Assembly (NCBI RefSeq): GCF_044324785.1 | Contig: NZ_CP172127.1 | From: Escherichia coli | Lineage (GTDB): Bacteria; Pseudomonadota; Gammaproteobacteria; Enterobacterales; Enterobacteriaceae | Strand: one strand, 5' to 3' | Length of the DNA stretch: 64,000 nt | Shown: one piece after another, positions 3,285 to 36,788 of the stretch | How the letters are laid out: the number at the start of each line of letters is the position of its first letter | Numbering within the stretch: the first letter of the stretch is position 1 | Translations under genes and position numbers: made by a program | Notes under the pieces: model-generated | What the model was told of the DNA's origin: nothing | The model's input: the letters and a program-made list of their open reading frames with translations, nothing else | Database searches by the model: none

Positions 3285-4274
3285 ATGAAACTCGCCGTTT
3301 ATAGCACAAAACAGTACGACAAGAAGTACCTGCAACAGGTGAACGAGTCCTTTGGCTTTGAGCTGGAATTTTTTGACTTTCTGCTGACGGAAAAAACCGC
3401 TAAAACGGCCAATGGCTGCGAAGCGGTATGTATTTTCGTAAACGATGACGGCAGCCGCCCGGTGCTGGAAGAGCTGAAAAAGCACGGCGTTAAATATATC
3501 GCCCTGCGCTGTGCCGGTTTCAATAACGTCGACCTTGACGCGGCAAAAGAACTGGGGCTGAAAGTAGTCCGTGTTCCAGCCTATGATCCAGAAGCCGTTG
3601 CTGAACACGCCATCGGTATGATGATGACGCTGAACCGCCGTATTCATCGCGCGTATCAGCGTACTCGTGACGCCAACTTCTCTCTGGAAGGTCTGACCGG
3701 CTTTACTATGTATGGCAAAACGGCAGGCGTTATCGGTACCGGTAAAATCGGTGTGGCGATGCTGCGCATTCTGAAAGGTTTTGGTATGCGTCTGCTGGCG
3801 TTCGATCCGTATCCAAGTGCGGCGGCACTGGAACTCGGTGTGGAGTATGTCGATCTGCCAACCCTGTTCTCTGAATCAGACGTTATCTCTCTGCACTGCC
3901 CGCTGACACCGGAAAACTACCATCTGTTGAACGAAGCCGCCTTTGATCAGATGAAAAATGGCGTGATGATCGTCAATACCAGTCGCGGTGCATTGATTGA
4001 TTCTCAGGCGGCAATTGAAGCGCTGAAAAATCAGAAAATTGGTTCGTTGGGTATGGACGTGTATGAGAACGAACGCGATCTGTTCTTTGAAGACAAATCC
4101 AACGACGTGATCCAGGATGACGTATTCCGTCGTCTGTCTGCCTGCCACAACGTGCTGTTTACCGGGCACCAGGCATTCCTGACAGCAGAAGCACTGACCA
4201 GTATTTCTCAGACTACGCTGCAAAACTTAAGCAATCTGGAAAAAGGCGAAACCAGCCCGAACGAACTGGTTTAA
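3285..4274 (+). CDS. ldhA: fermentative D-lactate dehydrogenase, NAD-dependent (329 aa)
   Basis: 329 aa; D-2-hydroxyacid dehydrogenase NAD-binding motif GVIGTGKIG; begins MKLAVYSTKQYDKKYL. Confidence 0.95.
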   Translation: MKLAVYSTKQYDKKYLQQVNESFGFELEFFDFLLTEKTAKTANGCEAVCIFVNDDGSRPVLEELKKHGVKYIALRCAGFNNVDLDAAKELGLKVVRVPAYDPEAVAEHAIGMMMTLNRRIHRAYQRTRDANFSLEGLTGFTMYGKTAGVIGTGKIGVAMLRILKGFGMRLLAFDPYPSAAALELGVEYVDLPTLFSESDVISLHCPLTPENYHLLNEAAFDQMKNGVMIVNTSRGALIDSQAAIEALKNQKIGSLGMDVYENERDLFFEDKSNDVIQDDVFRRLSACHNVLFTGHQAFLTAEALTSISQTTLQNLSNLEKGETSPNELV

Positions 4275-4281
4275 TCTTGCC

Positions 4282-4309
4282 GCTCCCCTGCATTCCAGGG
4301 GAGCTTATT
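4282..4309 (+). terminator. rho-independent terminator of ldhA
   Basis: stem gctcccctg / caggggagc with loop cattc, followed by ttattc, 8 nt after ldhA stop. Confidence 0.6.
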
Positions 4310-4384
4310 CAGATAATCCCCAAAGACCTTTCATCCTCTATTCTTAAAATAGTCCTGAGTCAGAAACTGTAATTGAGAACCACA

Positions 4385-4807
4385 ATGAAGAAAGTAGCCG
4401 CGCTCGTTGCGCTAAGCCTGCTGATGGCGGGATGTGTAAGTAATGACAAAATTGCTGTAACCCCAGAACAGCTACAGCATCATCGCTTTGTGCTGGAAAG
4501 CGTAAACGGTAAGCCCGTGACCAGCGATAAAAATCCGCCAGAAATCAGCTTTGGTGAAAAGATGATGATTTCCGGCAGCATGTGTAACCGCTTTAGCGGT
4601 GAAGGCAAACTGTCTAATGGTGAACTGACAGCCAAAGGGCTGGCAATGACCCGTATGATGTGCGCTAACCCGCAGCTTAATGAACTCGATAACACCATTA
4701 GCGAAATGCTGAAAGAAGGTGCACAAGTGGATCTGACCGCGAACCAGTTAACGCTGGCGACCGCGAAACAGACATTAACTTATAAGCTGGCGGATTTAAT
4801 GAATTAA
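4385..4807 (+). CDS. hslJ: heat-shock lipoprotein HslJ (140 aa)
   Basis: ORF track 4373..4807; start set at MKKVAALVALSLLMAGC (lipobox) to match the 140-aa protein. Confidence 0.85.
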   Translation: MKKVAALVALSLLMAGCVSNDKIAVTPEQLQHHRFVLESVNGKPVTSDKNPPEISFGEKMMISGSMCNRFSGEGKLSNGELTAKGLAMTRMMCANPQLNELDNTISEMLKEGAQVDLTANQLTLATAKQTLTYKLADLMN

Positions 4808-5070
4808 TAGCTGCCACAGCTCCCGGCGGCAAGTGACTGTTCGCTACAGCGTTTGCCGTTGGGTAATGCACACATCCCAATCGCCGTACCATCCAGTTGA
4901 CGGGCAACAGAAAGCGAACCGCCGATCATTGCACAATTTGCTTCTCCACTACTGGACATCGACGCTTTTAAACCTGGCGCTACGTGCGCCGCAGTCGCCT
5001 GTTGAACAGGTTCACTACTACACGCCGACAACAATAAAGCGGCACACCCTACCCAAAACGCTGCTCGCAT
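4804..5070 (-). CDS. ydbJ: DUF333 lipoprotein YdbJ (88 aa)
   Basis: 88-aa ORF with signal peptide and lipobox LSAC; convergent 4-bp overlap with hslJ. Confidence 0.8.
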   Translation of the reverse strand: MRAAFWVGCAALLLSACSSEPVQQATAAHVAPGLKASMSSSGEANCAMIGGSLSVARQLDGTAIGMCALPNGKRCSEQSLAAGSCGSY

Positions 5071-5343
5071 CTTTTCTTCCTCTGATCTTCAAGCCAAACG
5101 ACACCGCCATAAATAATAGGCAGCACAGAGGGCGACGTCGAGAGCTGTCCTGCGCGTTGCCCCGCATTTTTACTTTTTTATGGCTATTTTTTTGCCCTCT
5201 GTTTGATCAAAACATTCATTACGCTGATGTGGGGGACACAAAAGCGAAAATGCAGAAGAAAGCCATTTGCTAAAATTGAAAGATAACTACTGGGCGCGCA
5301 GCAATTTCGTGCGCCCCTCATTTGCGCAATGTAAGGGTGTCAT

Positions 5344-8300
5344 ATGATTACTATTGACGGTAATGGCGCGGTTGCTTCGGTGGCGTTTCGCACCAGTGAA
5401 GTTATCGCCATCTACCCTATTACCCCCAGTTCCACGATGGCAGAACAGGCTGATGCATGGGCCGGAAACGGCTTGAAAAACGTCTGGGGAGACACACCAC
5501 GCGTGGTTGAAATGCAGTCGGAAGCAGGTGCTATCGCTACCGTGCATGGCGCTTTGCAGACGGGTGCCCTTTCAACATCGTTTACGTCATCGCAGGGTTT
5601 GCTGCTGATGATCCCGACGCTGTACAAACTGGCAGGCGAACTCACACCGTTTGTCCTACATGTAGCGGCACGTACCGTTGCCACACATGCACTCTCTATT
5701 TTTGGCGATCATTCCGACGTCATGGCGGTGCGCCAGACGGGTTGCGCGATGTTGTGTGCGGCAAACGTCCAGGAAGCGCAAGACTTTGCTCTCATTTCGC
5801 ACATCGCGACGCTGAAAAGCCGCGTGCCATTTATTCATTTCTTTGATGGTTTCCGCACGTCCCACGAAATCAATAAAATTGTCCCGCTGGCCGATGACAC
5901 GATTCTTGATCTCATGCCGCAGGCCGAAATTGATGCTCATCGCGCCCGGGCACTCAACCCGGAACATCCGGTGATCCGCGGTACGTCCGCCAATCCTGAC
6001 ACTTATTTCCAGTCTCGCGAAGCCACCAACCCCTGGTACAACGCGGTCTATGACCATGTTGAGCAGGCGATGAATGATTTCGCTGCCGCGACAGGTCGTC
6101 AGTATCAGCCGTTTGAGTATTACGGGCATCCGCAAGCTGAACGAGTGATTATCCTGATGGGCTCAGCCATTGGCACCTGTGAAGAAGTGGTTGATGAATT
6201 GCTAACCCGTGGCGAAAAAGTCGGCGTGCTGAAAATTCGCCTGTACCGCCCCTTCTCAGCCAAACACTTGCTACAAGCTCTGCCGGGATCCGTACGCAGC
6301 GTGGCGGTACTGGACAGAACCAAAGAACCCGGTGCCCAGGCAGAACCGCTCTATCTGGATGTGATGACCGCACTGGCAGAAGCCTTTAATAATGGCGAGC
6401 GCGAAACCCTGCCCCGTGTCATTGGTGGGCGCTATGGTCTTTCATCCAAAGAATTTGGCCCGGACTGTGTACTGGCGGTATTTGCCGAGCTCAACGCGGC
6501 TAAACCGAAAGCGCGCTTTACGGTTGGTATTTACGATGATGTGACCAATCTGTCACTGCCGTTGCCGGAAAACACCCTGCCAAACTCGGCGAAACTTGAA
6601 GCCTTGTTTTATGGCCTTGGTAGTGATGGCAGCGTTTCCGCGACCAAAAACAATATCAAGATTATCGGTAATTCCACGCCGTGGTACGCACAGGGCTATT
6701 TTGTTTACGACTCCAAAAAGGCGGGCGGCCTGACGGTTTCTCACCTTCGCGTGAGCGAGCAGCCGATTCGTTCCGCTTATCTCATTTCCCAGGCTGATTT
6801 TGTTGGCTGCCACCAGTTGCAGTTTATCGATAAATATCAGATGGTTGAACGTTTAAAACCTAGCGGCATTTTCCTGCTCAACACGCCGTACAGCGCAGAT
6901 GAAGTGTGGTCGCGCTTGCCGCAGGAAGTTCAGGCCGTGTTAAACCAGAAAAAAGCGCGCTTCTATGTGATTAACGCGGCGAAAATCGCCCGCGAATGTG
7001 GCCTGGCGGCCCGTATTAATACCGTCATGCAGATGGCTTTTTTCCATCTGACGCAAATTCTGCCTGGCGATAGCGCCCTCGCAGAATTGCAGGGTGCGAT
7101 TGCCAAAAGTTACAGTAGCAAAGGTCAGGATCTGGTGGAGCGCAACTGGCAGGCTCTGGCGCTGGCGCGTGAATCCGTAGAAGAAGTTCCGTTGCAGCCG
7201 GTTAATCCGCACAGCGCCAATCGACCGCCTGTGGTTTCCGATGCCGCTCCTGATTTCGTGAAAACCGTTACCGCGGCGATGCTCGCCGGGCTTGGTGATG
7301 CCCTCCCCGTTTCGGCGCTGCCGCCAGACGGCACCTGGCCGATGGGCACCACGCGCTGGGAAAAACGCAATATCGCCGAAGAGATCCCCATCTGGAAAGA
7401 GGAACTCTGTACCCAATGTAACCACTGCGTCGCCGCTTGCCCACACTCAGCTATTCGCGCAAAAGTGGTACCGCCTGAAGCGATGGAAAACGCCCCTGCC
7501 AGCCTGCATTCGCTGGATGTGAAATCGCGTGATATGCGCGGGCAGAAATATGTCTTGCAGGTGGCACCGGAAGATTGCACCGGCTGTAACCTGTGCGTCG
7601 AAGTTTGCCCGGCGAAAGACCGTCAGAATCCAGAGATTAAAGCCATCAATATGATGTCGCGCCTGGAACATGTCGAAGAAGAGAAAATCAATTACGATTT
7701 CTTCCTCAACCTGCCAGAAATCGACCGTAGCAAACTGGAACGTATTGATATTCGTACATCGCAGCTGATTACACCGCTGTTTGAATATTCAGGTGCTTGC
7801 TCCGGTTGTGGCGAGACGCCGTATATTAAATTGCTGACTCAGCTCTATGGCGACCGGATGTTGATCGCTAACGCCACGGGCTGTTCTTCAATTTATGGCG
7901 GTAACCTGCCCTCTACACCGTATACTACCGATGCCAACGGTCGAGGACCGGCATGGGCGAACTCGCTGTTTGAAGATAACGCCGAATTTGGCCTTGGTTT
8001 CCGCCTGACGGTCGATCAACACCGTGTCCGCGTGCTGCGTCTGCTGGATCAATTTGCCGATAAAATCCCGGCTGAATTACTAACTGCGTTGAAATCAGAC
8101 GCCACGCCAGAGGTTCGTCGTGAACAGGTTGCAGCTTTACGCCAGCAACTCAAAGATGTTGCCGAAGCACATGAACTGCTACGTGACGCAGATGCGCTGG
8201 TGGAAAAATCAATCTGGCTGATTGGCGGCGACGGCTGGGCTTACGATATCGGCTTTGGCGGTTTGGATCATGTATTGAGTTTGACAGAAAACGTCAACAT

Positions 8301-8868
8301 TCTGGTGCTGGATACGCAATGCTATTCCAACACCGGTGGTCAGGCGTCGAAAGCGACACCGCTGGGTGCAGTAACTAAGTTCGGCGAGCACGGCAAACGT
8401 AAAGCGCGTAAAGATCTTGGCGTCAGTATGATGATGTACGGTCATGTTTATGTGGCGCAGATTTCTCTCGGCGCGCAGCTCAACCAGACGGTGAAAGCGA
8501 TTCAGGAAGCGGAAGCGTATCCGGGGCCATCGCTGATCATCGCTTATAGCCCCTGTGAAGAGCATGGTTACGATCTGGCACTCAGTCACGACCAGATGCG
8601 CCAACTCACTGCTACCGGCTTCTGGCCGCTATATCGCTTTGATCCGCGTCGTGCCGATGAAGGCAAACTGCCGCTGGCGCTGGATTCACGCCCGCCGTCA
8701 GAAGCACTGGAAGAAACGTTACTTCATGAGCAGCGTTTCCGTCGTCTGAATTCGCTGCAGCCAGAAGTGGCAGAACAGTTATGGAAAGATGCTGCAGCTG
8801 ATTTGCAAAAACGCTATGACTTCCTGGCACAAATGGCCGGAAAAGCGGAAAAAAGCAACACCGATTAA
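5344..8868 (+). CDS. ydbK: pyruvate:flavodoxin/ferredoxin oxidoreductase (1174 aa)
   Basis: 1174 aa; two 4Fe-4S ferredoxin motifs CTQCNHCVAACP and CTGCNLCVEVCP; TPP-binding GGDGWAYDIGFGG. Confidence 0.95.
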   Translation: MITIDGNGAVASVAFRTSEVIAIYPITPSSTMAEQADAWAGNGLKNVWGDTPRVVEMQSEAGAIATVHGALQTGALSTSFTSSQGLLLMIPTLYKLAGELTPFVLHVAARTVATHALSIFGDHSDVMAVRQTGCAMLCAANVQEAQDFALISHIATLKSRVPFIHFFDGFRTSHEINKIVPLADDTILDLMPQAEIDAHRARALNPEHPVIRGTSANPDTYFQSREATNPWYNAVYDHVEQAMNDFAAATGRQYQPFEYYGHPQAERVIILMGSAIGTCEEVVDELLTRGEKVGVLKIRLYRPFSAKHLLQALPGSVRSVAVLDRTKEPGAQAEPLYLDVMTALAEAFNNGERETLPRVIGGRYGLSSKEFGPDCVLAVFAELNAAKPKARFTVGIYDDVTNLSLPLPENTLPNSAKLEALFYGLGSDGSVSATKNNIKIIGNSTPWYAQGYFVYDSKKAGGLTVSHLRVSEQPIRSAYLISQADFVGCHQLQFIDKYQMVERLKPSGIFLLNTPYSADEVWSRLPQEVQAVLNQKKARFYVINAAKIARECGLAARINTVMQMAFFHLTQILPGDSALAELQGAIAKSYSSKGQDLVERNWQALALARESVEEVPLQPVNPHSANRPPVVSDAAPDFVKTVTAAMLAGLGDALPVSALPPDGTWPMGTTRWEKRNIAEEIPIWKEELCTQCNHCVAACPHSAIRAKVVPPEAMENAPASLHSLDVKSRDMRGQKYVLQVAPEDCTGCNLCVEVCPAKDRQNPEIKAINMMSRLEHVEEEKINYDFFLNLPEIDRSKLERIDIRTSQLITPLFEYSGACSGCGETPYIKLLTQLYGDRMLIANATGCSSIYGGNLPSTPYTTDANGRGPAWANSLFEDNAEFGLGFRLTVDQHRVRVLRLLDQFADKIPAELLTALKSDATPEVRREQVAALRQQLKDVAEAHELLRDADALVEKSIWLIGGDGWAYDIGFGGLDHVLSLTENVNILVLDTQCYSNTGGQASKATPLGAVTKFGEHGKRKARKDLGVSMMMYGHVYVAQISLGAQLNQTVKAIQEAEAYPGPSLIIAYSPCEEHGYDLALSHDQMRQLTATGFWPLYRFDPRRADEGKLPLALDSRPPSEALEETLLHEQRFRRLNSLQPEVAEQLWKDAAADLQKRYDFLAQMAGKAEKSNTD

Positions 8869-8896
8869 ATGTTCTGGATAAGAATTATCCAATTCT

Positions 8897-9006
8897 AAAA
8901 AAAAGCCCGAACGACTGTTCGGGCTTGTCTTTTTATATGTTGGAAAATCAGTGGCAATGCAATGGCCCAACAGAAAATAAAATCTGTGACAATAAAGGCA
9001 TATAAC
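8897..9006 (-). ncRNA. micC: MicC small RNA (about 109 nt), antisense regulator of porin mRNAs
   Basis: Minus-strand sequence GTTATATGCCTTTATTGTCACAGATTTTATTTTCTGTTGGGCC... ending in hairpin GCCCGAACAGTCGTTCGGGC plus U-run matches MicC as I recall it; lies between ydbK and ompN. Confidence 0.85.
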
Positions 9007-9233
9007 CCGCGCAGAATAACGTATAGCAAATTAAAAGTATAATTTTTATTTTGTATGTATTATCTCCAATACATTCACCAGACTTATTATCATTTCAGAA
9101 GAATTATTTGATTAAGGTTTTACTTAAGGCGTAACAAATAATATTTATCGGCTAACTGAACTTCTCCTTTAGGATGTTTTCACTCCCCGAAATGGGGATA
9201 AAAGGCAAATAAAATAACTAAAGGATTTATTCA

Positions 9234-10367
9234 ATGAAAAGCAAAGTACTGGCACTTTTAATTCCTGCCCTGCTCGCCGCAGGTGCTGCACATGCAGCCG
9301 AAGTTTATAATAAAGACGGCAACAAATTAGATCTGTATGGCAAAGTTGATGGCCTGCATTATTTTTCTGATAATTCAGCGAAAGATGGCGACCAGAGCTA
9401 TGCGCGTCTGGGTTTTAAAGGCGAAACCCAAATTAACGATCAACTAACTGGCTACGGTCAATGGGAATACAATATTCAGGCAAACAACACTGAATCCTCA
9501 AAAAACCAGTCATGGACCCGTCTGGCATTTGCCGGATTGAAATTTGCAGATTACGGTTCTTTCGATTACGGACGTAATTATGGCGTAATGTACGACATCG
9601 AAGGCTGGACCGATATGCTGCCTGAATTTGGCGGTGACTCTTATACCAATGCAGACAACTTTATGACTGGTCGAGCCAATGGCGTCGCGACTTATCGTAA
9701 TACTGATTTCTTCGGTCTGGTAAATGGTCTGAACTTCGCGGTGCAGTATCAAGGTAACAACGAAGGTGCCAGTAATGGTCAGGAAGGCACCAACAACGGA
9801 CGTGATGTTCGCCATGAAAACGGTGACGGCTGGGGTCTTTCCACAACATATGATTTAGGCATGGGCTTTAGCGCTGGTGCGGCATACACCTCTTCTGACC
9901 GCACCAATGACCAGGTTAACCATACTGCGGCGGGTGGTGATAAAGCAGACGCATGGACTGCTGGGCTAAAATACGATGCTAACAATATTTACCTGGCAAC
10001 CATGTATTCAGAAACGCGTAATATGACCCCGTTTGGCGACAGCGATTATGCTGTTGCAAACAAAACCCAGAACTTTGAAGTTACTGCACAGTACCAGTTT
10101 GATTTTGGTCTGCGTCCGGCAGTCTCTTTCCTGATGTCTAAAGGCCGTGACCTGCACGCTGCCGGTGGTGCAGACAACCCGGCAGGTGTTGATGATAAAG
10201 ATCTGGTTAAATACGCCGATGTTGGCGCGACTTACTATTTCAACAAAAATATGTCCACCTACGTTGACTATAAAATCAACCTGTTGGATGAAGATGACAG
10301 CTTCTACGCTGCCAACGGCATCTCTACCGATGATATTGTCGCTTTAGGTCTGGTTTATCAGTTCTAA
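9234..10367 (+). CDS. ompN: outer membrane porin OmpN (377 aa)
   Basis: 377 aa, signal peptide ending AHA, porin-like beta-strand pattern, C-terminal YQF. Confidence 0.95.
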
Positions 10368-10375
10368 ATCCTCCT

Positions 10376-10399
10376 GCCCGCTGTTATGGCGGGCTTTTT
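10376..10399 (+). terminator. rho-independent terminator of ompN
   Basis: gcccgc tgttatg gcgggc followed by ttttt. Confidence 0.7.
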
Positions 10400-10426
10400 C
10401 TGCTTATTCTTCCTCCTTTGATCTAA

Positions 10427-10942
<516 letters not shown>

Positions 10943-10949
10943 CACTAAC

Positions 10950-10975
10950 GCCCGCACATTGCTGCGGGCTTTTTG
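10950..10975 (+). terminator. rho-independent terminator of uspF
   Basis: gcccgca cattgc tgcgggc followed by ttttt. Confidence 0.7.
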
Positions 10976-11117
10976 ATTCATTTCGCAAATGTGCTGACAT
11001 TTTCCCCTCTAATCCGTACCATACACGCCACTGTTTTTATATCAGATTTCTTATGCTGGGCATTCCGGCATGACGCATACTCTTCTGATGCCATATAACG
11101 AATTGAGTCGCTTTTAA

Positions 11118-12053
11118 ATGTCGCAAAATCAAGAAATTAGTAAGAAAGAACAATACAACCTGAACAAATTACAAAAACGTCTGCGTCGTAACGTGGGCGA
11201 AGCCATTGCTGACTTCAATATGATTGAAGAAGGCGATCGCATCATGGTTTGCCTCTCCGGGGGTAAAGACAGCTATACCATGCTGGAGATTCTGCGCAAT
11301 TTGCAGCAAAGCGCGCCAATCAATTTTTCGCTGGTGGCTGTTAACCTCGATCAAAAGCAACCGGGCTTCCCGGAACACGTTCTGCCCGAGTATCTTGAAA
11401 AGCTGGGCGTTGAGTACAAGATTGTTGAAGAGAACACTTACGGTATCGTGAAAGAGAAAATTCCAGAGGGCAAAACCACTTGCTCACTGTGTTCTCGCCT
11501 GCGTCGCGGTATCCTTTATCGTACCGCAACGGAACTAGGGGCGACGAAGATCGCACTGGGTCACCATCGTGACGATATCCTGCAAACGCTGTTCTTAAAT
11601 ATGTTCTACGGTGGCAAGATGAAAGGTATGCCTCCGAAACTGATGAGCGATGATGGCAAACATATCGTGATTCGTCCGCTGGCCTACTGCCGCGAGAAAG
11701 ATATTCAGCGCTTTGCCGATGCAAAAGCGTTCCCGATTATTCCGTGCAACCTGTGCGGTTCACAGCCTAACCTGCAACGTCAGGTAATTGCTGACATGTT
11801 GCGTGACTGGGATAAACGTTATCCGGGGCGTATCGAGACGATGTTCAGCGCAATGCAGAATGTGGTGCCGTCGCATCTGTGCGATACCAACCTGTTCGAT
11901 TTCAAAGGCATTACCCACGGTTCTGAAGTGGTTAACGGGGGTGATCTGGCGTTTGATCGCGAAGAGATCCCACTACAACCGGCGGGCTGGCAGCCAGAAG
12001 AAGATGAAAATCAGTTGGATGAGTTACGACTGAATGTGGTTGAAGTGAAATAA
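11118..12053 (+). CDS. ttcA: tRNA 2-thiocytidine(32) synthetase TtcA, intact (311 aa)
   Basis: 311 aa; PP-loop ATP pyrophosphatase motif SGGKDS; CxxC pairs (CSLC, CNLC). Confidence 0.9.
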
Positions 12054-12100
12054 CCAGGATAGCGCCCGATGCGCAAGCGTATCGGGCTACTCTTATGGAG

Positions 12101-12133
12101 GCCGGATAAGACGCGGCCAGCGTCGCGTCCGGC
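12101..12133. repeat. REP/PU-like palindromic element in the ttcA-dbpA convergent spacer
   Basis: gccggataagacgcggccagcgtcgcgtccggc resembles the GCCGGATAAG...CCGGC REP family; a separate hairpin (gcccgat...atcgggc) lies at 12064-12087. Confidence 0.5.
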
Positions 12134-12181
12134 AATCCCGGAGAAGATGTTTACTCTTGCACCCTGCGATTCAACATTTCA

Positions 12182-13555
12182 TTATTTTAATAACCGCACC
12201 CGGCACGTTTTTCCTTTAATCTTCCCGCCCTGCAACTGTTTCCATGCTTTATGAGCAACAGCCTGACGCACCGCGACATAGACATGCGCCGGATGCACGG
12301 CGATTTTGCCAATATCTGCGCCATCAAGCCCGATATCTCCTGTCAGCGCACCTAATACATCACCCGGGCGCATTTTGGCTTTTTTCCCGCCATCGATACA
12401 TAACGTTGCCATTTCGGCTTCCAGCGGCACAATGGAACTATTAACTGGCGGCGTTTGCCAGTTAAGTTTTATCTGCAACATGTCAGAAATGATATTGGCC
12501 CGCTGTGCTTCTTCCGGGGCACAGAAACTGATCGCCAGACCGCTATTTCCTGCACGCGCTGTGCGACCGATGCGATGTACATGAACTTCAGGATCCCACG
12601 CCAGCTCAAAGTTCACCACCAGCTCAAGCGATTTAATATCCAGACCTCGCGCAGCAACATCAGTCGCAACCAGTACACGGGCGCTACCGTTAGCAAAACG
12701 TACCAGGGTCTGATCGCGATCGCGTTGCTCCAGATCGCCGTGTAACGACAATGCACTTTGCCCTACTTCATTCAGCGCGTCGCAGACAGCCTGGCAATCT
12801 TTTTTGGTATTGCAAAACACCACACAAGAGGATGGCTGATGCAAGCTTAATAACCGTTGCAACAGAGGAATTTTGCCTTTACTGGATGTCTCATAAAATT
12901 GTTGTTCAATGGGTGGCAAAGCATCTGTTGAGTCAATTTCAATCGCCAAAGGATCGCGTTGCACTCGTCCGCTGATTGCGGCGATGGCTTCCGGCCAGGT
13001 TGCCGAAAACAGAAGCGTCTGTCGAGATGCAGGCGCAAAACGGATGACATCATCAATGGCATCGCTAAATCCCATATCCAGCATGCGGTCGGCCTCATCC
13101 ATCACCAAAGTATTCAGCGCATCCAGTGATACCGTGCCTTTTTGCAAGTGATCCAGCAAACGACCCGGCGTTGCCACGATAATATGCGGCGCATGTTGCA
13201 ACGAATCACGCTGCAAACCGAACGGTTGACCACCGCACAACGTCAAAATTTTGGTATTTGGCAGAAAACGCGCCAACCGACGCAATTCACCTGCCACCTG
13301 ATCCGCCAGTTCACGCGTAGGACACAGCACTAAAGCCTGGGTTTGAAATAGCGACGCATCAATTTGCTGTAACAAGCCGAGGCCAAAAGCCGCCGTTTTG
13401 CCGCTGCCGGTTTTCGCCTGCACGCGAACATCTTTTCCGGCAAGGATCGCCGGAAGCGCGGCGGCCTGCACCGGCGTCATGGTTAAATAACCCAACTCAT
13501 TAAGGTTCGTGAGTTGGGCGGGAGGCAAAACATTCAGGGTAGAAAAAGCGGTCAC
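12182..13555 (-). CDS. dbpA: ATP-dependent DEAD-box RNA helicase DbpA (457 aa)
   Basis: 457 aa; Walker A AKTGSGKT, DEAD box VMDEADRML, SAT motif. Confidence 0.95.
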   Translation of the reverse strand: MTAFSTLNVLPPAQLTNLNELGYLTMTPVQAAALPAILAGKDVRVQAKTGSGKTAAFGLGLLQQIDASLFQTQALVLCPTRELADQVAGELRRLARFLPNTKILTLCGGQPFGLQRDSLQHAPHIIVATPGRLLDHLQKGTVSLDALNTLVMDEADRMLDMGFSDAIDDVIRFAPASRQTLLFSATWPEAIAAISGRVQRDPLAIEIDSTDALPPIEQQFYETSSKGKIPLLQRLLSLHQPSSCVVFCNTKKDCQAVCDALNEVGQSALSLHGDLEQRDRDQTLVRFANGSARVLVATDVAARGLDIKSLELVVNFELAWDPEVHVHRIGRTARAGNSGLAISFCAPEEAQRANIISDMLQIKLNWQTPPVNSSIVPLEAEMATLCIDGGKKAKMRPGDVLGALTGDIGLDGADIGKIAVHPAHVYVAVRQAVAHKAWKQLQGGKIKGKTCRVRLLK

Positions 13556-13584
13556 AATCTATTCTCGTGGTCATCGACGCAAAG

Positions 13585-13758
13585 TTAGCAGGCGCGTATC
13601 CTCGCAGATCTACGCTCACGATGCGACAATTTAATCGGTTCTTCATCGGGTGGTGGGTCAGGCATGGGTTGCGGGCGAGGGATTGGATCGGGCACAGGAA
13701 CAGGATCGCCAGGAATCGGTTCAGGGACAGGAATTTGCAAATAAATAAGTGTCGTCAT
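13585..13758 (-). CDS. candidate small proline-rich protein (57 aa), immediately upstream of dbpA
   Basis: ATG at 13758 preceded by GGAGGG 4 nt upstream; translation MTTLIYLQIPVPEPIPGDPVPVPDPIPRPQPMPDPPPDEEPIKLSHRERRSARIRAC; stop 29 nt before dbpA ATG; below the 60-aa cut-off of the ORF track. Confidence 0.4.
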   Translation of the reverse strand: MTTLIYLQIPVPEPIPGDPVPVPDPIPRPQPMPDPPPDEEPIKLSHRERRSARIRAC

Positions 13759-13815
13759 ATTTCCCTCCGGTCATTGGGTGGACTCTTAAAGGGTAGACGC
13801 TGATAAATAACAGGC

Positions 13816-13937
13816 AAAAAAAAGCCGACTCATCAAAGTCGGCGTCGTACGAATCAATTGTGCTATGCAGTAATTCAAAAAAGGAAGTAAGACAATATGG
13901 AGCGCAACGCCCATCGCTTGACGTTGCATTCACCTGC
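13816..13937 (-). ncRNA. fnrS: FnrS small RNA (about 122 nt), FNR-activated anaerobic sRNA
   Basis: Minus-strand GCAGGTGAATGCAACGTCAAGCGATGGGCGTTGCGCTCC...GCCGACTTTGATGAGTCGGC plus U8 matches FnrS as I recall it. Confidence 0.85.
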
Positions 13938-13972
13938 AAGGGAGATATTGCCCTGAATGGGTAGAGAGTTTA

Positions 13973-13986
13973 TTGACTTCGCTCAA
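13973..13986 (-). promoter_or_regulatory. FNR binding site upstream of fnrS
   Basis: TTGACttcgCTCAA, centred about 42 bp upstream of the inferred FnrS 5' end. Confidence 0.7.
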
Positions 13987-14032
13987 ACTTTGCGGCGTTT
14001 TTGTATACAGACAGCCGGAAAAATTGCTTTTG

Positions 14033-15037
<1,005 letters not shown>

Positions 15038-15270
15038 TTATTTTGTAGTCTAGCCTTCTGGCCCTGTTACGCAACATCTCATCACCCCATTACCCTGAAA
15101 TGATTAATAAAATTCTGTCTAAATTGAATACAAAAAGCAAAATGCTTTTCCATATACAAACCGTGTGAAGTGTTAAATAGCGTCTATCATTATCAGAATT
15201 ATCTGATCATATGACGTGGCTTTTTTGCGATCGGATAGCAACAAAAATTGATAAAAATAATGGGATCTCA

Positions 15271-16503
15271 ATGATTACGCACAACTTCAATACCCTGGAC
15301 TTACTCACCAGTCCTGTCTGGATCGTTTCGCCCTTTGAGGAACAGTTAATTTATGCCAATAGCGCGGCGCGACTGTTGATGCAAGACCTCACGTTTAGTC
15401 AGCTACGAACCGGTCCCTATTCCGTCTCCTCACAAAAAGAACTGCCAAAATACCTCTCCGATCTGCAAAACCAACACGATATTATCGAAATCCTCACCGT
15501 TCAGCGCAATGAAGAGGAAACAGCATTGAGCTGTCGGCTTGTTTTGCGAAAGCTGACAGAAGCAGAACCGGTGATTATTTTCGAAGGTATCGAAGCACCG
15601 GCAACGCTGGGTTTAAAAGCCAGTCGCTCGGCAAATTATCAGCGCAAAAAACAAGGTTTTTATGCGCGCTTTTTTCTGACTAACTCTGCACCAATGTTGT
15701 TGATTGACCCGTCACGAGATGGACAAATCGTCGATGCTAACCTCGCCGCGCTCAATTTCTATGGTTATAACCATGAAACGATGTGCCAGAAACATACCTG
15801 GGAAATAAATATGCTCGGGCGTCGCGTCATGCCTATCATGCATGAAATCTCGCATTTACCCGGTGGTCATAAGCCTTTGAATTTTATTCATAGGCTGGCG
15901 GATGGTTCGACTCGTCATGTGCAGACCTATGCCGGTCCGATTGAAATTTATGGCGACAAGCTCATGTTATGTATTGTGCATGATATTACTGAGCAAAAAC
16001 GGCTGGAGGAGCAGCTGGAACATGCTGCCCACCATGACGCGATGACAGGATTACTGAATCGGCGACAGTTTTATCACATTACCGAGCCAGGCCAAATGCA
16101 GCACCTCGCCATCGCCCAGGATTACAGCTTGTTGCTCATCGACACCGATCGTTTTAAACACATTAACGATCTCTATGGGCATTCTAAAGGTGATGAGGTG
16201 TTATGCGCCCTCGCCCGCACTCTCGAAAGTTGCGCTCGCAAAGGCGATTTGGTGTTTCGTTGGGGAGGCGAAGAGTTTGTCTTATTGCTACCAAGAACCC
16301 CACTGGATACCGCGCTTTCGCTGGCTGAAACTATCCGCGTAAGCGTGACAAAAGTGAGTATTTCGGGCTTACCACGCTTTACCGTCAGCATTGGTGTGGC
16401 GCATCACGAAGGAAATGAAAGCATCGATGAACTGTTTAAACGCGTTGATGATGCTTTGTATCGGGCGAAAAATGATGGACGCAACCGCGTGCTGGCGGCA
16501 TAA
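15271..16503 (+). CDS. dgcM: PAS-GGDEF diguanylate cyclase DgcM/YdaM (410 aa)
   Basis: ORF track 15211..16503; start set at MITHNFNTLD; GGDEF active-site motif RWGGEEF. Confidence 0.9.
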   Translation: MITHNFNTLDLLTSPVWIVSPFEEQLIYANSAARLLMQDLTFSQLRTGPYSVSSQKELPKYLSDLQNQHDIIEILTVQRNEEETALSCRLVLRKLTEAEPVIIFEGIEAPATLGLKASRSANYQRKKQGFYARFFLTNSAPMLLIDPSRDGQIVDANLAALNFYGYNHETMCQKHTWEINMLGRRVMPIMHEISHLPGGHKPLNFIHRLADGSTRHVQTYAGPIEIYGDKLMLCIVHDITEQKRLEEQLEHAAHHDAMTGLLNRRQFYHITEPGQMQHLAIAQDYSLLLIDTDRFKHINDLYGHSKGDEVLCALARTLESCARKGDLVFRWGGEEFVLLLPRTPLDTALSLAETIRVSVTKVSISGLPRFTVSIGVAHHEGNESIDELFKRVDDALYRAKNDGRNRVLAA

Positions 16504-16523
16504 GCCGCGGATGCGTCTCGAGA

Positions 16524-17087
16524 TCAACGACTGCGCTTAGCGTGGCGCTCCCAGTTTTCTTGCTTCGCCTGCGCCGTTTTACGTAGTGCGACGTAACACG
16601 CCCCGCTGCCGCCATGATGCGGTAGCGCGGTGCAATATGCCTGAACATCATCAAATTCGGTCAGCCAGCGCGCCACATAGCTGCGGACAATATTGGCATG
16701 CGATTTATCATCCCGCCCTTTACCATGAATAATCAGCACGTTACGCAAACCATCCGCCAGGGCTTGTTGAATAAAACTGAACACCATTTTGCGGCACTCT
16801 TCCACCGGCTGGCGCAAAAGATTCAGGCTCGCCTGTTGCGGATATTTACCACTGCGCAGCTTATCCAGCACCCCATGTTGCAACCCTTCCCGCCGAAACT
16901 CCAGCGGCTGACTTAGTGGGATGATGTCGAGAAATCCGGTGGTGAGGAAATTATCAAGCTGCAGCGTGTCGATACGCTGCGGCGCACGTTGGTTACGCGT
17001 TGGATGCCAGTGGACATCGGTAGCACGTTTCAGCGGCTGGACATCTTCCATGGCGTCAAGAAACAGCGATTTGTCGTCAAGGTTCAT
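16524..17087 (-). CDS. smrA: Smr-domain DNA endonuclease SmrA/YdaL (187 aa)
   Basis: 187-aa ORF; length and position match YdaL. Confidence 0.85.
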   Translation of the reverse strand: MNLDDKSLFLDAMEDVQPLKRATDVHWHPTRNQRAPQRIDTLQLDNFLTTGFLDIIPLSQPLEFRREGLQHGVLDKLRSGKYPQQASLNLLRQPVEECRKMVFSFIQQALADGLRNVLIIHGKGRDDKSHANIVRSYVARWLTEFDDVQAYCTALPHHGGSGACYVALRKTAQAKQENWERHAKRSR

Positions 17088-17281
17088 GTAACCTCCTATG
17101 CACCTTCACACGTCGTGATTCAGACGGGTTAATTGTTCATACTTACTGCATCGTTCCCTTCACAGATTGAAACAATACTCTACTTCATACCTGTGAGTAT
17201 CTGCGCAGGCGGGGCATTTTATACTAGCCTGTTAGCAGTATCGAACAGTTTAGCCCGAGTTTAATTCAGCACAGGCTCCGA

Positions 17282-18796
17282 TCAGGATGATTTATTCATA
17301 GCAGGAACCAACAAAAATGCGATAAATAACAGACCACTGATTAGCAGAAAGGTATCCGAAAATGCCATAGTTTGCGCCTCCCTCAGCATCAATTGACTTA
17401 ATAATTTGGTTGAAGCCAGTATTTCCGATGTCTGGTCACTTCCACTGCGATTAAAAAACAAAGCACTTCTGGAAATGAAGTCATTCACCGTATGGGGAAC
17501 AGAAACCATTTTTTCACCCATTCTCGAAAAATGAAAATTAGTTCGATTATTGAGAATAGAGCCACACAGGGCAATACCAATCGCGCCCCCAAGATTACGT
17601 GTTAAATTAAATACACCAGAGGCTAACTTCAGCCGTTCTTTTGGAATTCCCCCCAGCGTTAATGTTACGATGGGGGCCATCGCAAACTGCTGCGAAATCC
17701 CTCTAATTGCCTGTGGAAACAGTAACTCCTGCCATCCCCATTCGTGGGTTATCGGGGTAAAAAGATACATTGAAAACACAAATCCACCCAGCCCCGCCAT
17801 CAACAGCCATCGCAGATTTATTTTTTTACTTAACCAGAAGTAAAAGGGAACAGAAAATAACTGGAAAATACCTGTTGTGCAAACGGCAAAACCTATCTCT
17901 TCGGCATTTAATCCGCGAACCTGCCCCAAAAACACAGGTATTAAATATACAGTAGAGAATATCCCAACCCCTCCAGAAAAAGAAAAAAAACATCCCAGCG
18001 TGAAATTTTTATCCTTAAAAGCATGAAGATCCATTATCGGATTGGATATTGTAAGTGTACGCACAGCAAATAAAATAAAACTCACCAATGCCAGAACTGA
18101 TGTCAGCAAAATAGTATTATCATCCAGCCATCCCCAGCGCGCTCCTTCTTCAACGGTATATTCCAGACATCCCAGTGTCATGGCCAACAGGATAATACTC
18201 GGATAATCAGCAACTTTCAGTAAAGAGAGATCAGGTTTATCAAAATTAACCAGAAAAGGAATACTCAAAACTAAATATATGCCAGGTAATATATTGATAT
18301 AAAATAGCCATCGCCAGTCGAGATTATCAGTGATCCAGCCCCCCAGAGTTGGCCCTAGCGTCGGTGACAGTGAGGCCAGCGCACTGACTACCGCAGCAGC
18401 CAACCCCAGCTCTTTACCCTGGTAATAAATAAACGCCGTCGTGAAAACTAAAGGGATCATGGATGCGCCAGCCGCTCCCTGTAAAGCACGAAACAAAATC
18501 ATGATCTGAATATTCCATGCAAGTCCACACGCGATACTCATTAAAGTAAATATTCCCGCGGATAGAGTAAAAAGCCAACGAGTGGAAAATACCCGTGACA
18601 GCCACCCAGAGAGCGGAATAACAATAATCTCAGCAATTAAATAGCTGGTCTGAAGCCAGGCCATTTCGTCTTTACCTGCGGACAGACCACCACCTATTTC
18701 ATTTAGGGATGACGATACAATTTGAATATCAAGCTGAGCAATAAATAATCCCATACACATACTGGCGAAAGCAATATGTTTACGCATAGACATCAT
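17282..18796 (-). CDS. MFS transporter, EmrB/QacA-like multidrug-efflux type (504 aa)
   Basis: 504 aa, highly hydrophobic with many predicted TM segments; start overlaps upstream MFP stop by 4 nt (ATGA). Confidence 0.8.
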   Translation of the reverse strand: MMSMRKHIAFASMCMGLFIAQLDIQIVSSSLNEIGGGLSAGKDEMAWLQTSYLIAEIIVIPLSGWLSRVFSTRWLFTLSAGIFTLMSIACGLAWNIQIMILFRALQGAAGASMIPLVFTTAFIYYQGKELGLAAAVVSALASLSPTLGPTLGGWITDNLDWRWLFYINILPGIYLVLSIPFLVNFDKPDLSLLKVADYPSIILLAMTLGCLEYTVEEGARWGWLDDNTILLTSVLALVSFILFAVRTLTISNPIMDLHAFKDKNFTLGCFFSFSGGVGIFSTVYLIPVFLGQVRGLNAEEIGFAVCTTGIFQLFSVPFYFWLSKKINLRWLLMAGLGGFVFSMYLFTPITHEWGWQELLFPQAIRGISQQFAMAPIVTLTLGGIPKERLKLASGVFNLTRNLGGAIGIALCGSILNNRTNFHFSRMGEKMVSVPHTVNDFISRSALFFNRSGSDQTSEILASTKLLSQLMLREAQTMAFSDTFLLISGLLFIAFLLVPAMNKSS

Positions 18797-19824
18797 CTCT
18801 CATCAACACTGACGGTGACGGACAGTCCCGGGCGAAGAAGTTGCTTTAATTCCTTTGCGTCGTCAAATGCAATCCGTACCGGGACACGCTGAACAATTTT
18901 GGTGAAATTGCCAGTGGCATTTTCTATCGGAATCAAGCTGAAACTGGCTCCTGTCGCTGGGGAAAGGCTTTCAATGTGACCGTGAAACACTTCCCCTTTG
19001 AGAATATCAGCACGGATCTCAGCCTTCATTCCTGGCTTCATTCCCGCTATTTGGTTTTCTTTATAATTTGCATCAACCCACAACTCACTGACTGGTACTA
19101 GTGAAACTAACGATGTGCCGCCTTCCACCCAACTGCCTGTATGGGCGCTGCGGTTTGCGACAATGCCATCAATCGGCGCACGAACAAGGGTATATTCCAG
19201 ATCCAGTAGTGCCTGAGTCAAAGCGGCCTGAACTTCTTCGATACTTGCACGTACGTTTTCTTCCTGAGCAGATAAAACTGCCAGCCGTTGCTTCTCCACC
19301 ATGAAATCGTTCGCGGCTTTGCGCTCCTTTGCTGCGACCTGCTGGTAGTCAAACCTGGCGTTATCAATAATTTGTTGCGATATTGCCGCTGATTGTGCGA
19401 GTTTTTCATAACGTTCAGTATCTCGCAGGCGCTTTTGCTCCTCATGTTTTACTGCCTGCCATGTTTCACTGGCACTTTGAATTATCGACTGCTGCATCGC
19501 AATAGTGGCTTGAATGCTTTCGAGATTGGCTTTGCTACTTTTTATTTTTGCCTCAAGCCTGGCGACATTTGCACGATAATCCCGATCATCGAGACGCAGG
19601 ATAATATCGCCTTTTTTTACGCTCTGATTATCGCGCACCTCTATAGCAGAAATATAACCAGAAACTTTACTTGCCACCGTGGTGATATTACCACCAATGT
19701 AAGCATCATCCGTCGTCTGTATAAATCTTCCTTTGCTTACCCACCAGATAAAAAAGACAACGCCAGCCAAAATAATACCGATCGCTACCACCCCAATAAG
19801 CTGTTTTTTAGAAATTATCATCAC
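18793..19824 (-). CDS. HlyD/EmrA-family membrane fusion protein (343 aa)
   Basis: N-terminal TM anchor (VVAIGIILAGVVFFIWW), long coiled-coil region, C-terminal beta-barrel segment typical of MFPs. Confidence 0.8.
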   Translation of the reverse strand: MMIISKKQLIGVVAIGIILAGVVFFIWWVSKGRFIQTTDDAYIGGNITTVASKVSGYISAIEVRDNQSVKKGDIILRLDDRDYRANVARLEAKIKSSKANLESIQATIAMQQSIIQSASETWQAVKHEEQKRLRDTERYEKLAQSAAISQQIIDNARFDYQQVAAKERKAANDFMVEKQRLAVLSAQEENVRASIEEVQAALTQALLDLEYTLVRAPIDGIVANRSAHTGSWVEGGTSLVSLVPVSELWVDANYKENQIAGMKPGMKAEIRADILKGEVFHGHIESLSPATGASFSLIPIENATGNFTKIVQRVPVRIAFDDAKELKQLLRPGLSVTVSVDER

Positions 19825-19917
19825 TCTTTACACCGTATATATCCGGAAACTTGCATTCGTCATATTTAAAATTTAACATGGCTTATTTGATGATTTCTGA
19901 CAAAATACCTACTGTAA

Positions 19918-20733
19918 ATGACAATCACACTGCAACCCAAAGCATCACCAGGGCATCACATTATCGGACTGGATTCGGAACATCTGAATGGAGGCACAGT
20001 TCCCTGGCATAAACATCTCTATGCCCAGTTGCTTTACCCGGCTGAAGGAGTCGTTCGTGTATGGGCTGGAGAAAGCGTCTGGCTAGTCCATGCCAGCAGC
20101 GCGCTTTGGCTGCCCCCACAAATGCCGCATAAGTTTGTTGCGACAGGCAACGTACTTTTAAAAACCGTACTGGTTTCAGAAGCGGAAAGTGAAACGCTGG
20201 GAAAAGTTTGCTTCATGACGGGTATTTCACCCCTGTTAAGAGAATTACTAATTGCAATTAACCAACTTCCACCGTCGCAAAGTACCACAGATAAACAACA
20301 GTTACGTTTTTCAGCCCTCGAGACACTGATACTTCAGGAAATAAAAATGGGGGTGAAAATGTCACTTGAACTCCCTTGGCCAAATGATGAGCGGCTACAG
20401 CAGCTTTGTGAGAATTTGCTAAACAACCAAGGGTATCTACCAACACTGGATAATCTAGCGGATAAAATTAACGTCAGTAGCCGTACACTCATGCGCTTAT
20501 TTGTTAAAGAGACGGGATTAACATTTCGCCACTGGGTTCAGCAAATGCACGTTATTTCTGCAGTGACGCTTCTTGATGATGGATATTCGTTGACCAAAAT
20601 TGCCCATCGTCTGGGCTATGCCTCAGCTGAATCGTTCGGCAATATGTTTAAGCGTCGAACGGGCTACTCGCCCGGTAAATTTACTCGTCGATTAACGATG
20701 CATGATTATGCAATCACAAGACAAATGATTTAA
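19918..20733 (+). CDS. AraC/XylS-family transcriptional regulator with N-terminal cupin-like domain (271 aa)
   Basis: C-terminal double HTH (KIAHRLGYASAESFGNMFKRRTGYSPGKF); divergent from the MFP-MFS operon. Confidence 0.8.
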   Translation: MTITLQPKASPGHHIIGLDSEHLNGGTVPWHKHLYAQLLYPAEGVVRVWAGESVWLVHASSALWLPPQMPHKFVATGNVLLKTVLVSEAESETLGKVCFMTGISPLLRELLIAINQLPPSQSTTDKQQLRFSALETLILQEIKMGVKMSLELPWPNDERLQQLCENLLNNQGYLPTLDNLADKINVSSRTLMRLFVKETGLTFRHWVQQMHVISAVTLLDDGYSLTKIAHRLGYASAESFGNMFKRRTGYSPGKFTRRLTMHDYAITRQMI

Positions 20734-20803: not shown

Positions 20804-20897
20804 ACCGGTCACCAGGACCCCAGGCCGGATTTAAGACGAGGATGCACTGCTGTGTGTACTGTAGAGTCTGGCGGATGTCGACAGACTCTATTTTTTT
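20804..20897 (+). ncRNA. mcaS: McaS (IsrA) small RNA
   Basis: ACCGGTCACCAGGACCCCAGGCCGGATTTAAGACGAGGATGCACTGCTGTGTGTACTGTAGAGTCTGGCGGATGTCGACAGACTCTATTTTTTT; GGA motifs plus terminal hairpin and U-run; -35/-10 candidates ttggca/tataac upstream. Confidence 0.8.
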
Positions 20898-20905
20898 ATG
20901 CAGTT

Positions 20906-29190: not shown

Positions 29191-29433
29191 GATGTAATCC
29201 TTGTGCAGACAAATTTCTTGTTACCTAAACGTAACAATACCATGACATTTTACCGTTGTCTGCTCTGAAAACCTTACCTCTTAGCTGGATTTACAATCAA
29301 CGCATTGATTAGTTAGCTAATGTTGCTACTTCCTTCCCTGACTATTGATGATCTGAATGAATTGTCGCGGTAAAATAGCCCCGCCAGGGGTTTCCGGCAT
29401 GACGACAATTATCTGGAGGAGCCTGATAAAACA

Positions 29434-30691: not shown

Positions 30692-30746
30692 GGTGATGCT
30701 GCCAACTTACTGATTTAGTGTATGATGGTGTTTTTGAGGTGCTCCA

Positions 30747-31022
30747 GTGGCTTCTGTTTCTATCAGCTGTCCCTCCTGTTCAGCTACTGACGGGGTGGTG
30801 CGTAACGGCAAAAGCACCGCCGGACATCAGCGCTATCTCTGCTCTCACTGCCGTAAAACATGGCAACTGCAGTTCACTTACACCGCTTCTCAACCCGGTA
30901 CGCACCAGAAAATCATTGATATGGCCATGAATGGCGTTGGATGCCGGGCAACTGCCCGCATTATGGGCGTTGGCCTCAACACGATTTTACGTCACTTAAA
31001 AAACTCAGGCCGCAGTCGGTAA
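30747..31022 (+). CDS. insA: IS1 InsA (91 aa)
   Basis: [43 protein letters not shown]... zinc-finger/HTH InsA. Confidence 0.95.
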
Positions 31023-31444
31023 CCTCGCGCATACAGCCGGGCAGTGACGTCATCGTCTGCGCGGAAATGGACGAACAGTGGGGCTATGTCGGGGCTAAAT
31101 CGCGCCAGCGCTGGCTGTTTTACGCGTATGACAGTCTCCGGAAGACGGTTGTTGCGCACGTATTCGGTGAACGCACTATGGCGACGCTGGGGCGTCTTAT
31201 GAGCCTGCTGTCACCCTTTGACGTGGTGATATGGATGACGGATGGCTGGCCGCTGTATGAATCCCGCCTGAAGGGAAAGCTGCACGTAATCAGCAAGCGA
31301 TATACGCAGCGAATTGAGCGGCATAACCTGAATCTGAGGCAGCACCTGGCACGGCTGGGACGGAAGTCGCTGTCGTTTTCAAAATCGGTGGAGCTGCATG
31401 ACAAAGTCATCGGGCATTATCTGAACATAAAACACTATCAATAA
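30941..31444 (+). CDS. insB: IS1 InsB reading frame (expressed as InsAB' by -1 frameshift)
   Basis: 167-aa ORF in the -1 frame overlapping the insA 3' end. Confidence 0.9.
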
Positions 31445-31459
31445 GTTGGAGTCATTACC

Positions 31460-34267: not shown

Positions 34268-35200
34268 ATGAGGAACGGAATGATGAATAATAAAGTCAGC
34301 TTCACTAACAGCAATAATCCAACCATCTCTTTGTCTGCAGTGATCTATTTCCCTCCAAAATTTGATGAAACCCGTCAGTATCCGGCAATTGTGGTATCTC
34401 ACCCAGGTGGGGGCGTTAAAGAGCAAACGGCCGGAACCTATGCCGAAAAACTGGCGGAAAAGGGATTTGTCACTATTGCTTATGACGCATCTTATCAAGG
34501 TGAAAGCGGCGGCGAGCCGCGTCAGTTAGAAAACCCATACATTCGTACTGAAGACGTCAGTGCCGTGATTGATTACCTGACAACGCTTTCTTATGTCGAC
34601 AATACCCGAATTGGTGCGATGGGAATTTGTGCCGGTGCAGGATATACAGCCAATGCTGCAATTCAGGATCGCCGCATCAAGGCCATCGGTACTGTTAGTG
34701 CGGTCAATATTGGTTCGATGTTCCGTAATGGTTGGGAAAACAATGTGAAATCTATTGATGCCCTACCATACGTTGACGCGGGTTCAAACGCCCGAACCAG
34801 CGATATTAGCAGCGGAGAATACGCCACTATGCCACTGGCACCAATGAAGGAGTCCGATGCGCCGAACGAAGAACTGCGTCAGGCCTGGGAGTATTACCAC
34901 ACCCCTCGCGCGCAGTATCCAACAGCACCGGGTTACGCTACTTTGCGCAGCCTTAACCAGATTATTACCTATGATGCTTACCATATGGCGGAAGTGTACC
35001 TGACTCAGCCGATACAGATTGTGGCGGGCAGCCAGGCAGGGAGCAAATGGATGAGTGACGACCTGTACGATCGAGCATCAAGCCAGGATAAACGCTATCA
35101 CATTGTTGAAGGCGCAAACCATATGGATCTTTATGACGGCAAAGCCTATGTGGCTGAAGCAATTTCAGTATTAGCTCCGTTCTTTGAGGAAACTCTGTAA
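34268..35200 (+). CDS. ycjY: alpha/beta hydrolase, dienelactone-hydrolase-like with Cys nucleophile, YcjY (310 aa)
   Basis: GxCxG nucleophile elbow (MGICAGAG) in an alpha/beta-hydrolase-like sequence; start may be a few codons downstream. Confidence 0.8.
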   Translation: MRNGMMNNKVSFTNSNNPTISLSAVIYFPPKFDETRQYPAIVVSHPGGGVKEQTAGTYAEKLAEKGFVTIAYDASYQGESGGEPRQLENPYIRTEDVSAVIDYLTTLSYVDNTRIGAMGICAGAGYTANAAIQDRRIKAIGTVSAVNIGSMFRNGWENNVKSIDALPYVDAGSNARTSDISSGEYATMPLAPMKESDAPNEELRQAWEYYHTPRAQYPTAPGYATLRSLNQIITYDAYHMAEVYLTQPIQIVAGSQAGSKWMSDDLYDRASSQDKRYHIVEGANHMDLYDGKAYVAEAISVLAPFFEETL

Positions 35201-36132: not shown

Positions 36133-36137
36133 GTTTC

Positions 36138-36788
36138 ATGAGAAATATTATGAAAAAAGTACTCATTCTTGGTGCTGGCGGTCAGATAGCCCGCCATGTG
36201 ATTAATCAACTGGCAGATAAACAAACCATTAAACAAACTTTATTTGCTCGTCAGCCAGCAAAAATACACAAACCCTATCCAACTAATAGCCAGATTATTA
36301 TGGGGGATGTACTGAATCATGCAGCACTGAAGCAGGCCATGCAGGGACAGGATGTTGTGTATGCCAACCTTACGGGGGAAGATTTAGATATTCAGGCAAA
36401 TTCAGTGATCGCTGCGATGAAAGCCTGTGATGTTAAACGTCTGATCTTTGTTCTTTCCCTCGGTATTTATGATGAAGTTCCAGGAAAATTTGGCGAATGG
36501 AATAATGCAGTTATTGGTGAACCCCTAAAACCATTCCGCAGGGCTGCGGATGCAATTGAGGCTTCTGGACTGGAATATACAATTCTTCGCCCTGCCTGGC
36601 TGACTGATGAAGATATTATTGATTATGAGCTTACCTCACGCAATGAACCATTCAAAGGTACGATCGTATCACGTAAGAGTGTCGCCGCATTAATTACAGA
36701 TATCATCGATAAACCTGAGAAACACATTGGTGAGAATATAGGCATCAATCAACCCGGGACTGATGGCGATAAACCCTTCTTCATGTAA
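36138..36788 (+). CDS. NAD(P)H-binding NmrA/SDR-like protein (216 aa); corresponds in position to a region I recall as the K-12 ymjC remnant
   Basis: Rossmann motif VLILGAGGQIARH near the N-terminus; true start may be MKKVLILG at 36150. Confidence 0.7.
   Translation: MRNIMKKVLILGAGGQIARHVINQLADKQTIKQTLFARQPAKIHKPYPTNSQIIMGDVLNHAALKQAMQGQDVVYANLTGEDLDIQANSVIAAMKACDVKRLIFVLSLGIYDEVPGKFGEWNNAVIGEPLKPFRRAADAIEASGLEYTILRPAWLTDEDIIDYELTSRNEPFKGTIVSRKSVAALITDIIDKPEKHIGENIGINQPGTDGDKPFFM

Follow-up and report, generated by a model that had tools for sequence, protein, structure and literature searches.

The window, i.e. the whole stretch of 64,000 nucleotides of Escherichia coli DNA that was analysed, carries on its plus strand the genes ompN, uspF and ttcA, with dbpA and zntB lying downstream of ttcA on the minus strand. 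The limits of ompN (9234-10367) were read from the list of open reading frames and from the raw sequence. The uspF gene, which codes for the universal stress protein F (144 amino acids) and forms the left host flank of the site described below, extends from 10508 to 10942, with an ATG at 10508 and a stop codon at 10940-10942. It was identified by its open reading frame, by collinearity with K-12 and by NCBIfam, in which the UspF equivalog NF011581 was matched end to end (model positions 1-144 of 144) with 303.3 bits (cutoff 166), and the protein was assigned to UspF on this basis. Because the model aligns over its whole length from the ATG at 10508, this codon was taken as the true start of the gene, and the GTG at 10436, given as the start in the mechanical list of open reading frames, was rejected.

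The spacer between uspF and ttcA (10943-11117) is exactly 175 bp long. Just 3' of uspF, a pattern scan detected a terminator-like element on the plus strand (10950-10979), a consensus match only, in which the hairpin GCCCGCACATTGCTGCGGGC at 10950-10969 is followed by the T-run TTTTTGATTC. Pattern scanning also pointed to a promoter-like element on the plus strand at 10994-11022 (CTGACA, 17 nt, TACCAT; 9 of 12 matches). As sites of that quality occur on average 0.7 times in shuffled sequence, the match is a weak one, and this element may at most tentatively be considered as the native ttcA promoter. When the whole window was scanned with Rfam at the gathering thresholds, no RNA family was found in the spacer.

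The ttcA gene (11118-12053, plus strand) is intact and encodes the tRNA cytosine-32 2-sulfurtransferase, as established from its open reading frame, from NCBIfam and by comparison with K-12. A first reading of this DNA from its sequence only had described a full-length TtcA of 311 amino acids with its PP-loop, 175 bp after uspF, and this description was borne out by the open reading frames and by NCBIfam: the TtcA equivalog NF007972 was matched over its full length with 513.6 bits (cutoff 272), and the PP-loop motif SGGKDS was read from the sequence and the translation at residues 47-52 (11256-11273, plus strand). Two CxxC motifs, C122/C125 and C210/C213, are present as well. The full-length equivalog match, the PP-loop and both CxxC motifs assign the protein to TtcA.

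When compared with E. coli K-12 MG1655, the window is collinear with the K-12 chromosome in reversed orientation, from about position 1,445,985 down to 1,355,000, and the identity over the region is 97-98.7%. In the MG1655 annotation, the cryptic prophage Rac occupies positions 1411899-1434958 and separates ttcA, intR and xisR from ynaM, the ttcC' pseudogene, uspF and ompN, in agreement with the sequence-only reading, in which Rac of K-12 is integrated into ttcA and parts it from the uspF/ompN side. In the window, the two sides are contiguous. Positions 4128-11167 correspond to K-12 1442000-1434959 (uspF side), and positions 11125-17097 correspond to K-12 1411941-1405969 (ttcA side). These two matches overlap at 11125-11167, and the K-12 DNA that lies between them is missing here, i.e. 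the 23,060-bp Rac prophage is absent without any scar. It had been considered beforehand that Rac genes might be hidden by a gap in the assembly. There is, however, no N anywhere in the window and thus no assembly gap, and no blastn or tblastx match was obtained between the interior of the K-12 Rac prophage and the whole 64-kb window. As this search covered these 64 kb, a Rac-like prophage could be located in another part of the genome.

An alignment with the attL and attR junctions of K-12, the check proposed in the sequence-only reading, located a common core of 26 bp in the 5' region of ttcA. This core, AAGAAAGAACAATACAACCTGAACAA, lies at 11142-11167 on the plus strand and covers codons 9-17 of the gene. 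It is identical at 26 of 26 positions in the window and in both K-12 junctions, as seen in three-way and five-way alignments and by exact-string search. On the left, positions 11068-11167 of the window are identical to the uspF-side junction of K-12; on the right, positions 11142-11230 are identical to the int-side junction, which there runs into the body of ttcA. The two core copies of K-12 are spaced by 23,060 bp, a distance equal to the deletion reported for Rac excision (PMC11014345). Furthermore, in the GenBank record of phage Rac-SA53 (KU052037.1), the same 26-bp position is annotated as attP on the int side and as attB on the uspF side. A search for repeats and dyad symmetry around the core returned only the trivial palindrome TTTAAA at the start codon, and no inverted repeat by which core-type integrase binding sites could be recognised.

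The sequences bordering the core reveal how the two forms of the gene differ. In the window, the core is preceded by the native codons 1-8 of ttcA (11118-11141, plus strand; MSQNQEIS), which were delimited by the junction alignments, by protein comparison and by published data (PMC4632033). They read ATG TCG CAA AAT CAA GAA ATT AGT, which is the sequence of the ttcC' stub of K-12. On the int side of K-12, the core is preceded by ATG CAA GAA AAT CAA CAA ATT ACA, which is supplied by the phage; on the uspF side, the phage arm starts with GTAAGGG and ends the ttcC' stub by a TAA directly after the core. K-12 TtcA begins with MQENQQIT, since its codons 1-8 come from the copy carried by the phage. 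Over their whole length, the two proteins are identical at 306 of 311 residues (98%), and the differences concern residues 2, 3, 6 and 8 as well as residue 290, a glycine in the window and a cysteine in K-12.

These observations are in line with what has been published on K-12. Rac sits between ttcA and ttcC', and its excision, directed by XisR/YdaQ, alters four N-terminal residues of TtcA owing to imperfectly matched attachment sites (Liu et al. 2015, Sci Rep, PMC4632033). The TtcA form of the Rac-excised strain was considered by these authors to be the ancestral one. The prophages CP-933R and Sp10 of O157, which are counted among the Rac-like phages, use the same site in ttcA (PMC4632033). 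In an independent report, a precise excision of 23,060 bp at the 5' end of ttcA was described, whereas only two changes in TtcA, Q6E and T8S, with three base changes, were given (PMC11014345). The discrepancy between two and four residues likely comes from the placement of the deletion within the imperfect repeat and would not correspond to a biological difference.

Taken together, the core of the window is common to both lysogen junctions, its flanks are the host arms, and neither integrase nor prophage DNA lies between them. We are highly confident that positions 11142-11167 in ttcA constitute an unoccupied attB for Rac-type lambdoid phages. Compared with the attB of Rac-excised K-12 (PMC4632033), the gene, the position and the N-terminus MSQNQEIS of TtcA are the same, and the K-12 junction halves that would form such an attB agree at every position with the core and with the two host flanks of the window; the window differs in that the empty state is found in a natural, non-K-12 lineage, and in G290 instead of C290. 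The Rac-SA53/Sp10/CP-933R type also shares the ttcA site (PMC4632033), and in Rac-SA53 the annotated attP and attB fall on the same 26 bp. The attB copy of the window may be usable as a recombination substrate, as is indirectly suggested by the TtcA form that results from excision in K-12 (PMC4632033; PMC11014345) and by the int-ttcA junction of 2,912 genomes (see below).

The frequency of empty and occupied sites was determined among 5,426 complete E. coli genomes. A query of 150 bp centred on the core was covered to at least 80% in one piece in 2,488 of them, with 100% identity in many finished genomes, and a query of 1.7 kb spanning uspF and ttcA gave nearly the same count (2,487 of 5,426). 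The int-ttcA junction of K-12 (200-bp query) was present in 2,912 of the 5,426 genomes and the uspF-side junction of K-12 (200-bp query) in 1,819. Complete E. coli genomes are thus split into about 46% with an empty site and about 54% with an occupied one, and in about a thousand genomes the int-side junction is present while the opposite junction of the K-12 type is absent.

Occupied sites are themselves heterogeneous. In one sampled genome, PNUSAE147328, a full prophage with intR, xisR, ralR, recT and recE was found at the site. In the ST131 strain 2019_APHA, only a remnant of 2.3 kb is left between uspF and ttcA, in which a metal ABC permease with a frameshift, a fragment of DUF1627 and the final 231 bp of an integrase gene are found. 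In this strain, the 5' end of ttcA is of the phage type and the second core copy is absent; therefore, the remnant is no longer excisable by site-specific recombination. In CAVP776, the ttcA side has been replaced, in association with IS1.

Two other explanations of the empty site were considered. According to the first one, the similarity at the junctions would reflect the mere conservation of ttcA, and Rac-type phages would integrate elsewhere, a situation which the sequence-only reading had itself named as fatal to its proposal. This explanation is refuted: the K-12 annotation puts Rac exactly at ttcA, the junction alignments agree with it, and the int-ttcA junction recurs in the 2,912 genomes cited above. 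In addition, the ttcC' stub ends at the end of the core while the phage-borne ttcA codons begin at the int side, and excision from this site in K-12 was shown experimentally (PMC4632033; PMC11014345). According to the second explanation, the empty site would be an assembly artefact, in which a prophage flanked by repeated ttcA 5' segments had been collapsed. About 43-50 bp are indeed almost the same in the two junctions of a lysogen, and repeats can lead short-read assemblers to wrong joins. Nevertheless, a repeat of 26-50 bp is shorter than typical reads, so that a collapse is unlikely, the window is free of gaps with a perfect synteny of the flanks, and the 150-bp junction is found unchanged in many finished genomes. 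An artefact is accordingly very improbable.

A third possibility concerns the history of the site, which could formerly have been occupied and then have lost its prophage by precise excision under the action of IntR and XisR. Rac excision in K-12 is indeed precise and regenerates exactly the same TtcA N-terminus (PMC4632033; PMC11014345), and lysogeny at ttcA, present or past, concerns more than half of the complete E. coli genomes. An example of such a loss may be AG100, a K-12 derivative in which uspF adjoins ttcA and Rac is absent (NZ_LN832404.1, 1435570-1440983). On the other hand, the sequence of the window is neutral in this respect: because an exchange within an identical core leaves no scar, a site that was never occupied and a cured one are indistinguishable by sequence. 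The closest complete genome, that of strain N3, also has an empty site, which fits either history. We regard a cured attB as rather unlikely. Of the earlier claim that the window carries the native attB, the attB itself stands, supported by the 26-bp core, by the host flanks and by the TtcA N-terminus of excised K-12 (PMC4632033), whereas the word native cannot be separated from precisely cured.

As a separate observation on AG100, its genome contains an additional partial ttcA fragment, annotated as a pseudogene, which overlaps the start of ttcA and may be due to a rearrangement or to an assembly problem.

Strain N3 is identical to the window at 99.3-99.4%, and all other complete E. coli genomes reach at most 98.8% over the first 25 kb. 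Finished E. coli genomes thus include few representatives of the lineage from which the window comes. The insertions of IS1 and of an IS3-family element described below may be compatible with a Shigella-like genome.

The unoccupied attB can be placed in the following scheme of integration. The tyrosine recombinase IntR exchanges strands between attP and the core in ttcA, and excision is directed by XisR/YdaQ (PMC4632033). Recombination would take place in the shared 26-bp core, probably in its last 15 bp, and would split ttcA after about codon 17. A translation start and the first codons must come from the phage, because integration occurs at the 5' end of ttcA. A full-length ttcA would be rebuilt beside intR, as the int-side phage arm brings its own ribosome-binding region and ATG together with eight codons that deviate slightly from the native ones. 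Codons 1-17 and the native promoter would stay beside uspF as the ttcC' stub, closed by a phage-derived TAA. In the window, integration either never happened or was exactly reversed, and ttcA has retained its native promoter region and N-terminus.

The junctions of Rac-SA53 provide an indication of the position of the strand exchange within the core. The int-side copy of the core in this phage reads AAGAAAGAGATATACAACCTGAACAA and differs from the host at three positions, while the uspF-side copy corresponds to the host sequence. When the phage-side copy GAGATATAC is set against GAACAATAC, three positions differ, and the identity shared with the attB of the window is reduced to 15 bp. The three int-side differences lie to the left of this 15-mer; if they were carried by the phage before integration, the exchange must have occurred within 11153-11167. 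The Rac-SA53 junctions thus suggest that strand exchange takes place in the last 15 bp of the core, ATACAACCTGAACAA (11153-11167, plus strand), as the most likely segment. We are slightly inclined to think that the segment exchanged by IntR is narrower than the annotated 26 bp, and that the remaining shared sequence and the surrogate codons 1-8 would serve to preserve the coding of TtcA and not recombination. If true, this would refine a known system slightly.

In order to describe the phage side, the attP of Rac was reconstructed from the K-12 junctions as a sequence of 426 bp. When the phage collection was searched with it, no record covered more than 53% of the query and no contiguous attP across the core was found; the records of Rac-like phages are prophage excerpts, which end at host DNA or include it. 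The reconstructed attP contains repeats of TTTGCCCC, two on the int-side arm and three on the other arm, plus a TTTGCCAC variant. The TTTGCCCC repeats are plausible candidates for arm-type IntR binding sites; they belong to phage DNA and are located outside the window.

The site belongs to the same kind as the attB of phage lambda: attP and attB have a short core in common, the integrase is accompanied by a neighbouring excisionase, and both phage arms carry repeats. The lambda attB is, however, intergenic (gal-bio), whereas the Rac site lies within a coding gene, in its 5' end, for which the phage supplies a replacement. Phage 21 and e14, which integrate in icd, and the phages that integrate in tRNA genes also carry a near-copy of the displaced segment, which keeps the target gene intact. 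With these elements, it is the 3' end of the target that is replaced, whereas with Rac-type phages it is the 5' end, together with the start codon and the translation-initiation region. Unlike the 3'-end replacers, Rac-type integration parts ttcA from its native promoter.

An empty Rac site in ttcA is ordinary and has already been described in the literature. As Rac is missing at its usual locus, recET, kilR, ralR/ralA, sieB and trkG are missing at that locus, too, and the strain encodes the ancestral form of TtcA behind the native promoter region. The site is free for the landing of Rac-like phages; it can help in the typing of strains and can serve as a clean attB for reference. The finding adds little beyond annotation.

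Several other differences from K-12 were observed along the window. Between smrA and mcaS lies a block of 3.6 kb (17282-20733) that K-12 lacks and that has been annotated in the E. coli genomes matching best. It encodes an EmrB-like DHA2 MFS efflux pump (17282-18796, minus strand), an EmrA-like adaptor (18793-19824, minus strand) and a regulator of the AraC family (19918-20733, plus strand). At 35200-36788, two intact genes are present where K-12 has only the ymjC/ymjD remnants; their products are a 310-residue alpha/beta-hydrolase-like paralogue of the neighbouring ycjY and a protein of 216 residues with no NCBIfam match. Conversely, the 14-kb ycjM-ycjW block that includes ompG (K-12 1370022-1384104) is missing at 43573-43660, where the pspE-side and ycjX-side DNA are linked by about 85 bp of unrelated sequence; strain N3 appears to be alike.

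Insertion sequences also differ. The IS5 located between ynaI and ynaJ in K-12 (IS5F, 1396044-1397238) is absent at 29313-29316. The 3' end of mppA contains an inserted IS1 (about 30692-31459), with a 9-bp target duplication that corresponds to K-12 1394665-1394673; the mppA open reading frame now encodes 490 amino acids against 537 in K-12, and strain N3 appears to be without this insertion. Between pspF and puuE, an IS3-family element of 1.4 kb (46787-48218), with orfA at 46829-47359 and orfB at 47464-48186, is absent from K-12 and apparently from N3. Finally, three small RNA genes, each matched over its full length in Rfam, occupy the same positions as in K-12: MicC (8889-9009, minus strand), FnrS (13820-13937, minus strand) and McaS (20804-20899, plus strand).
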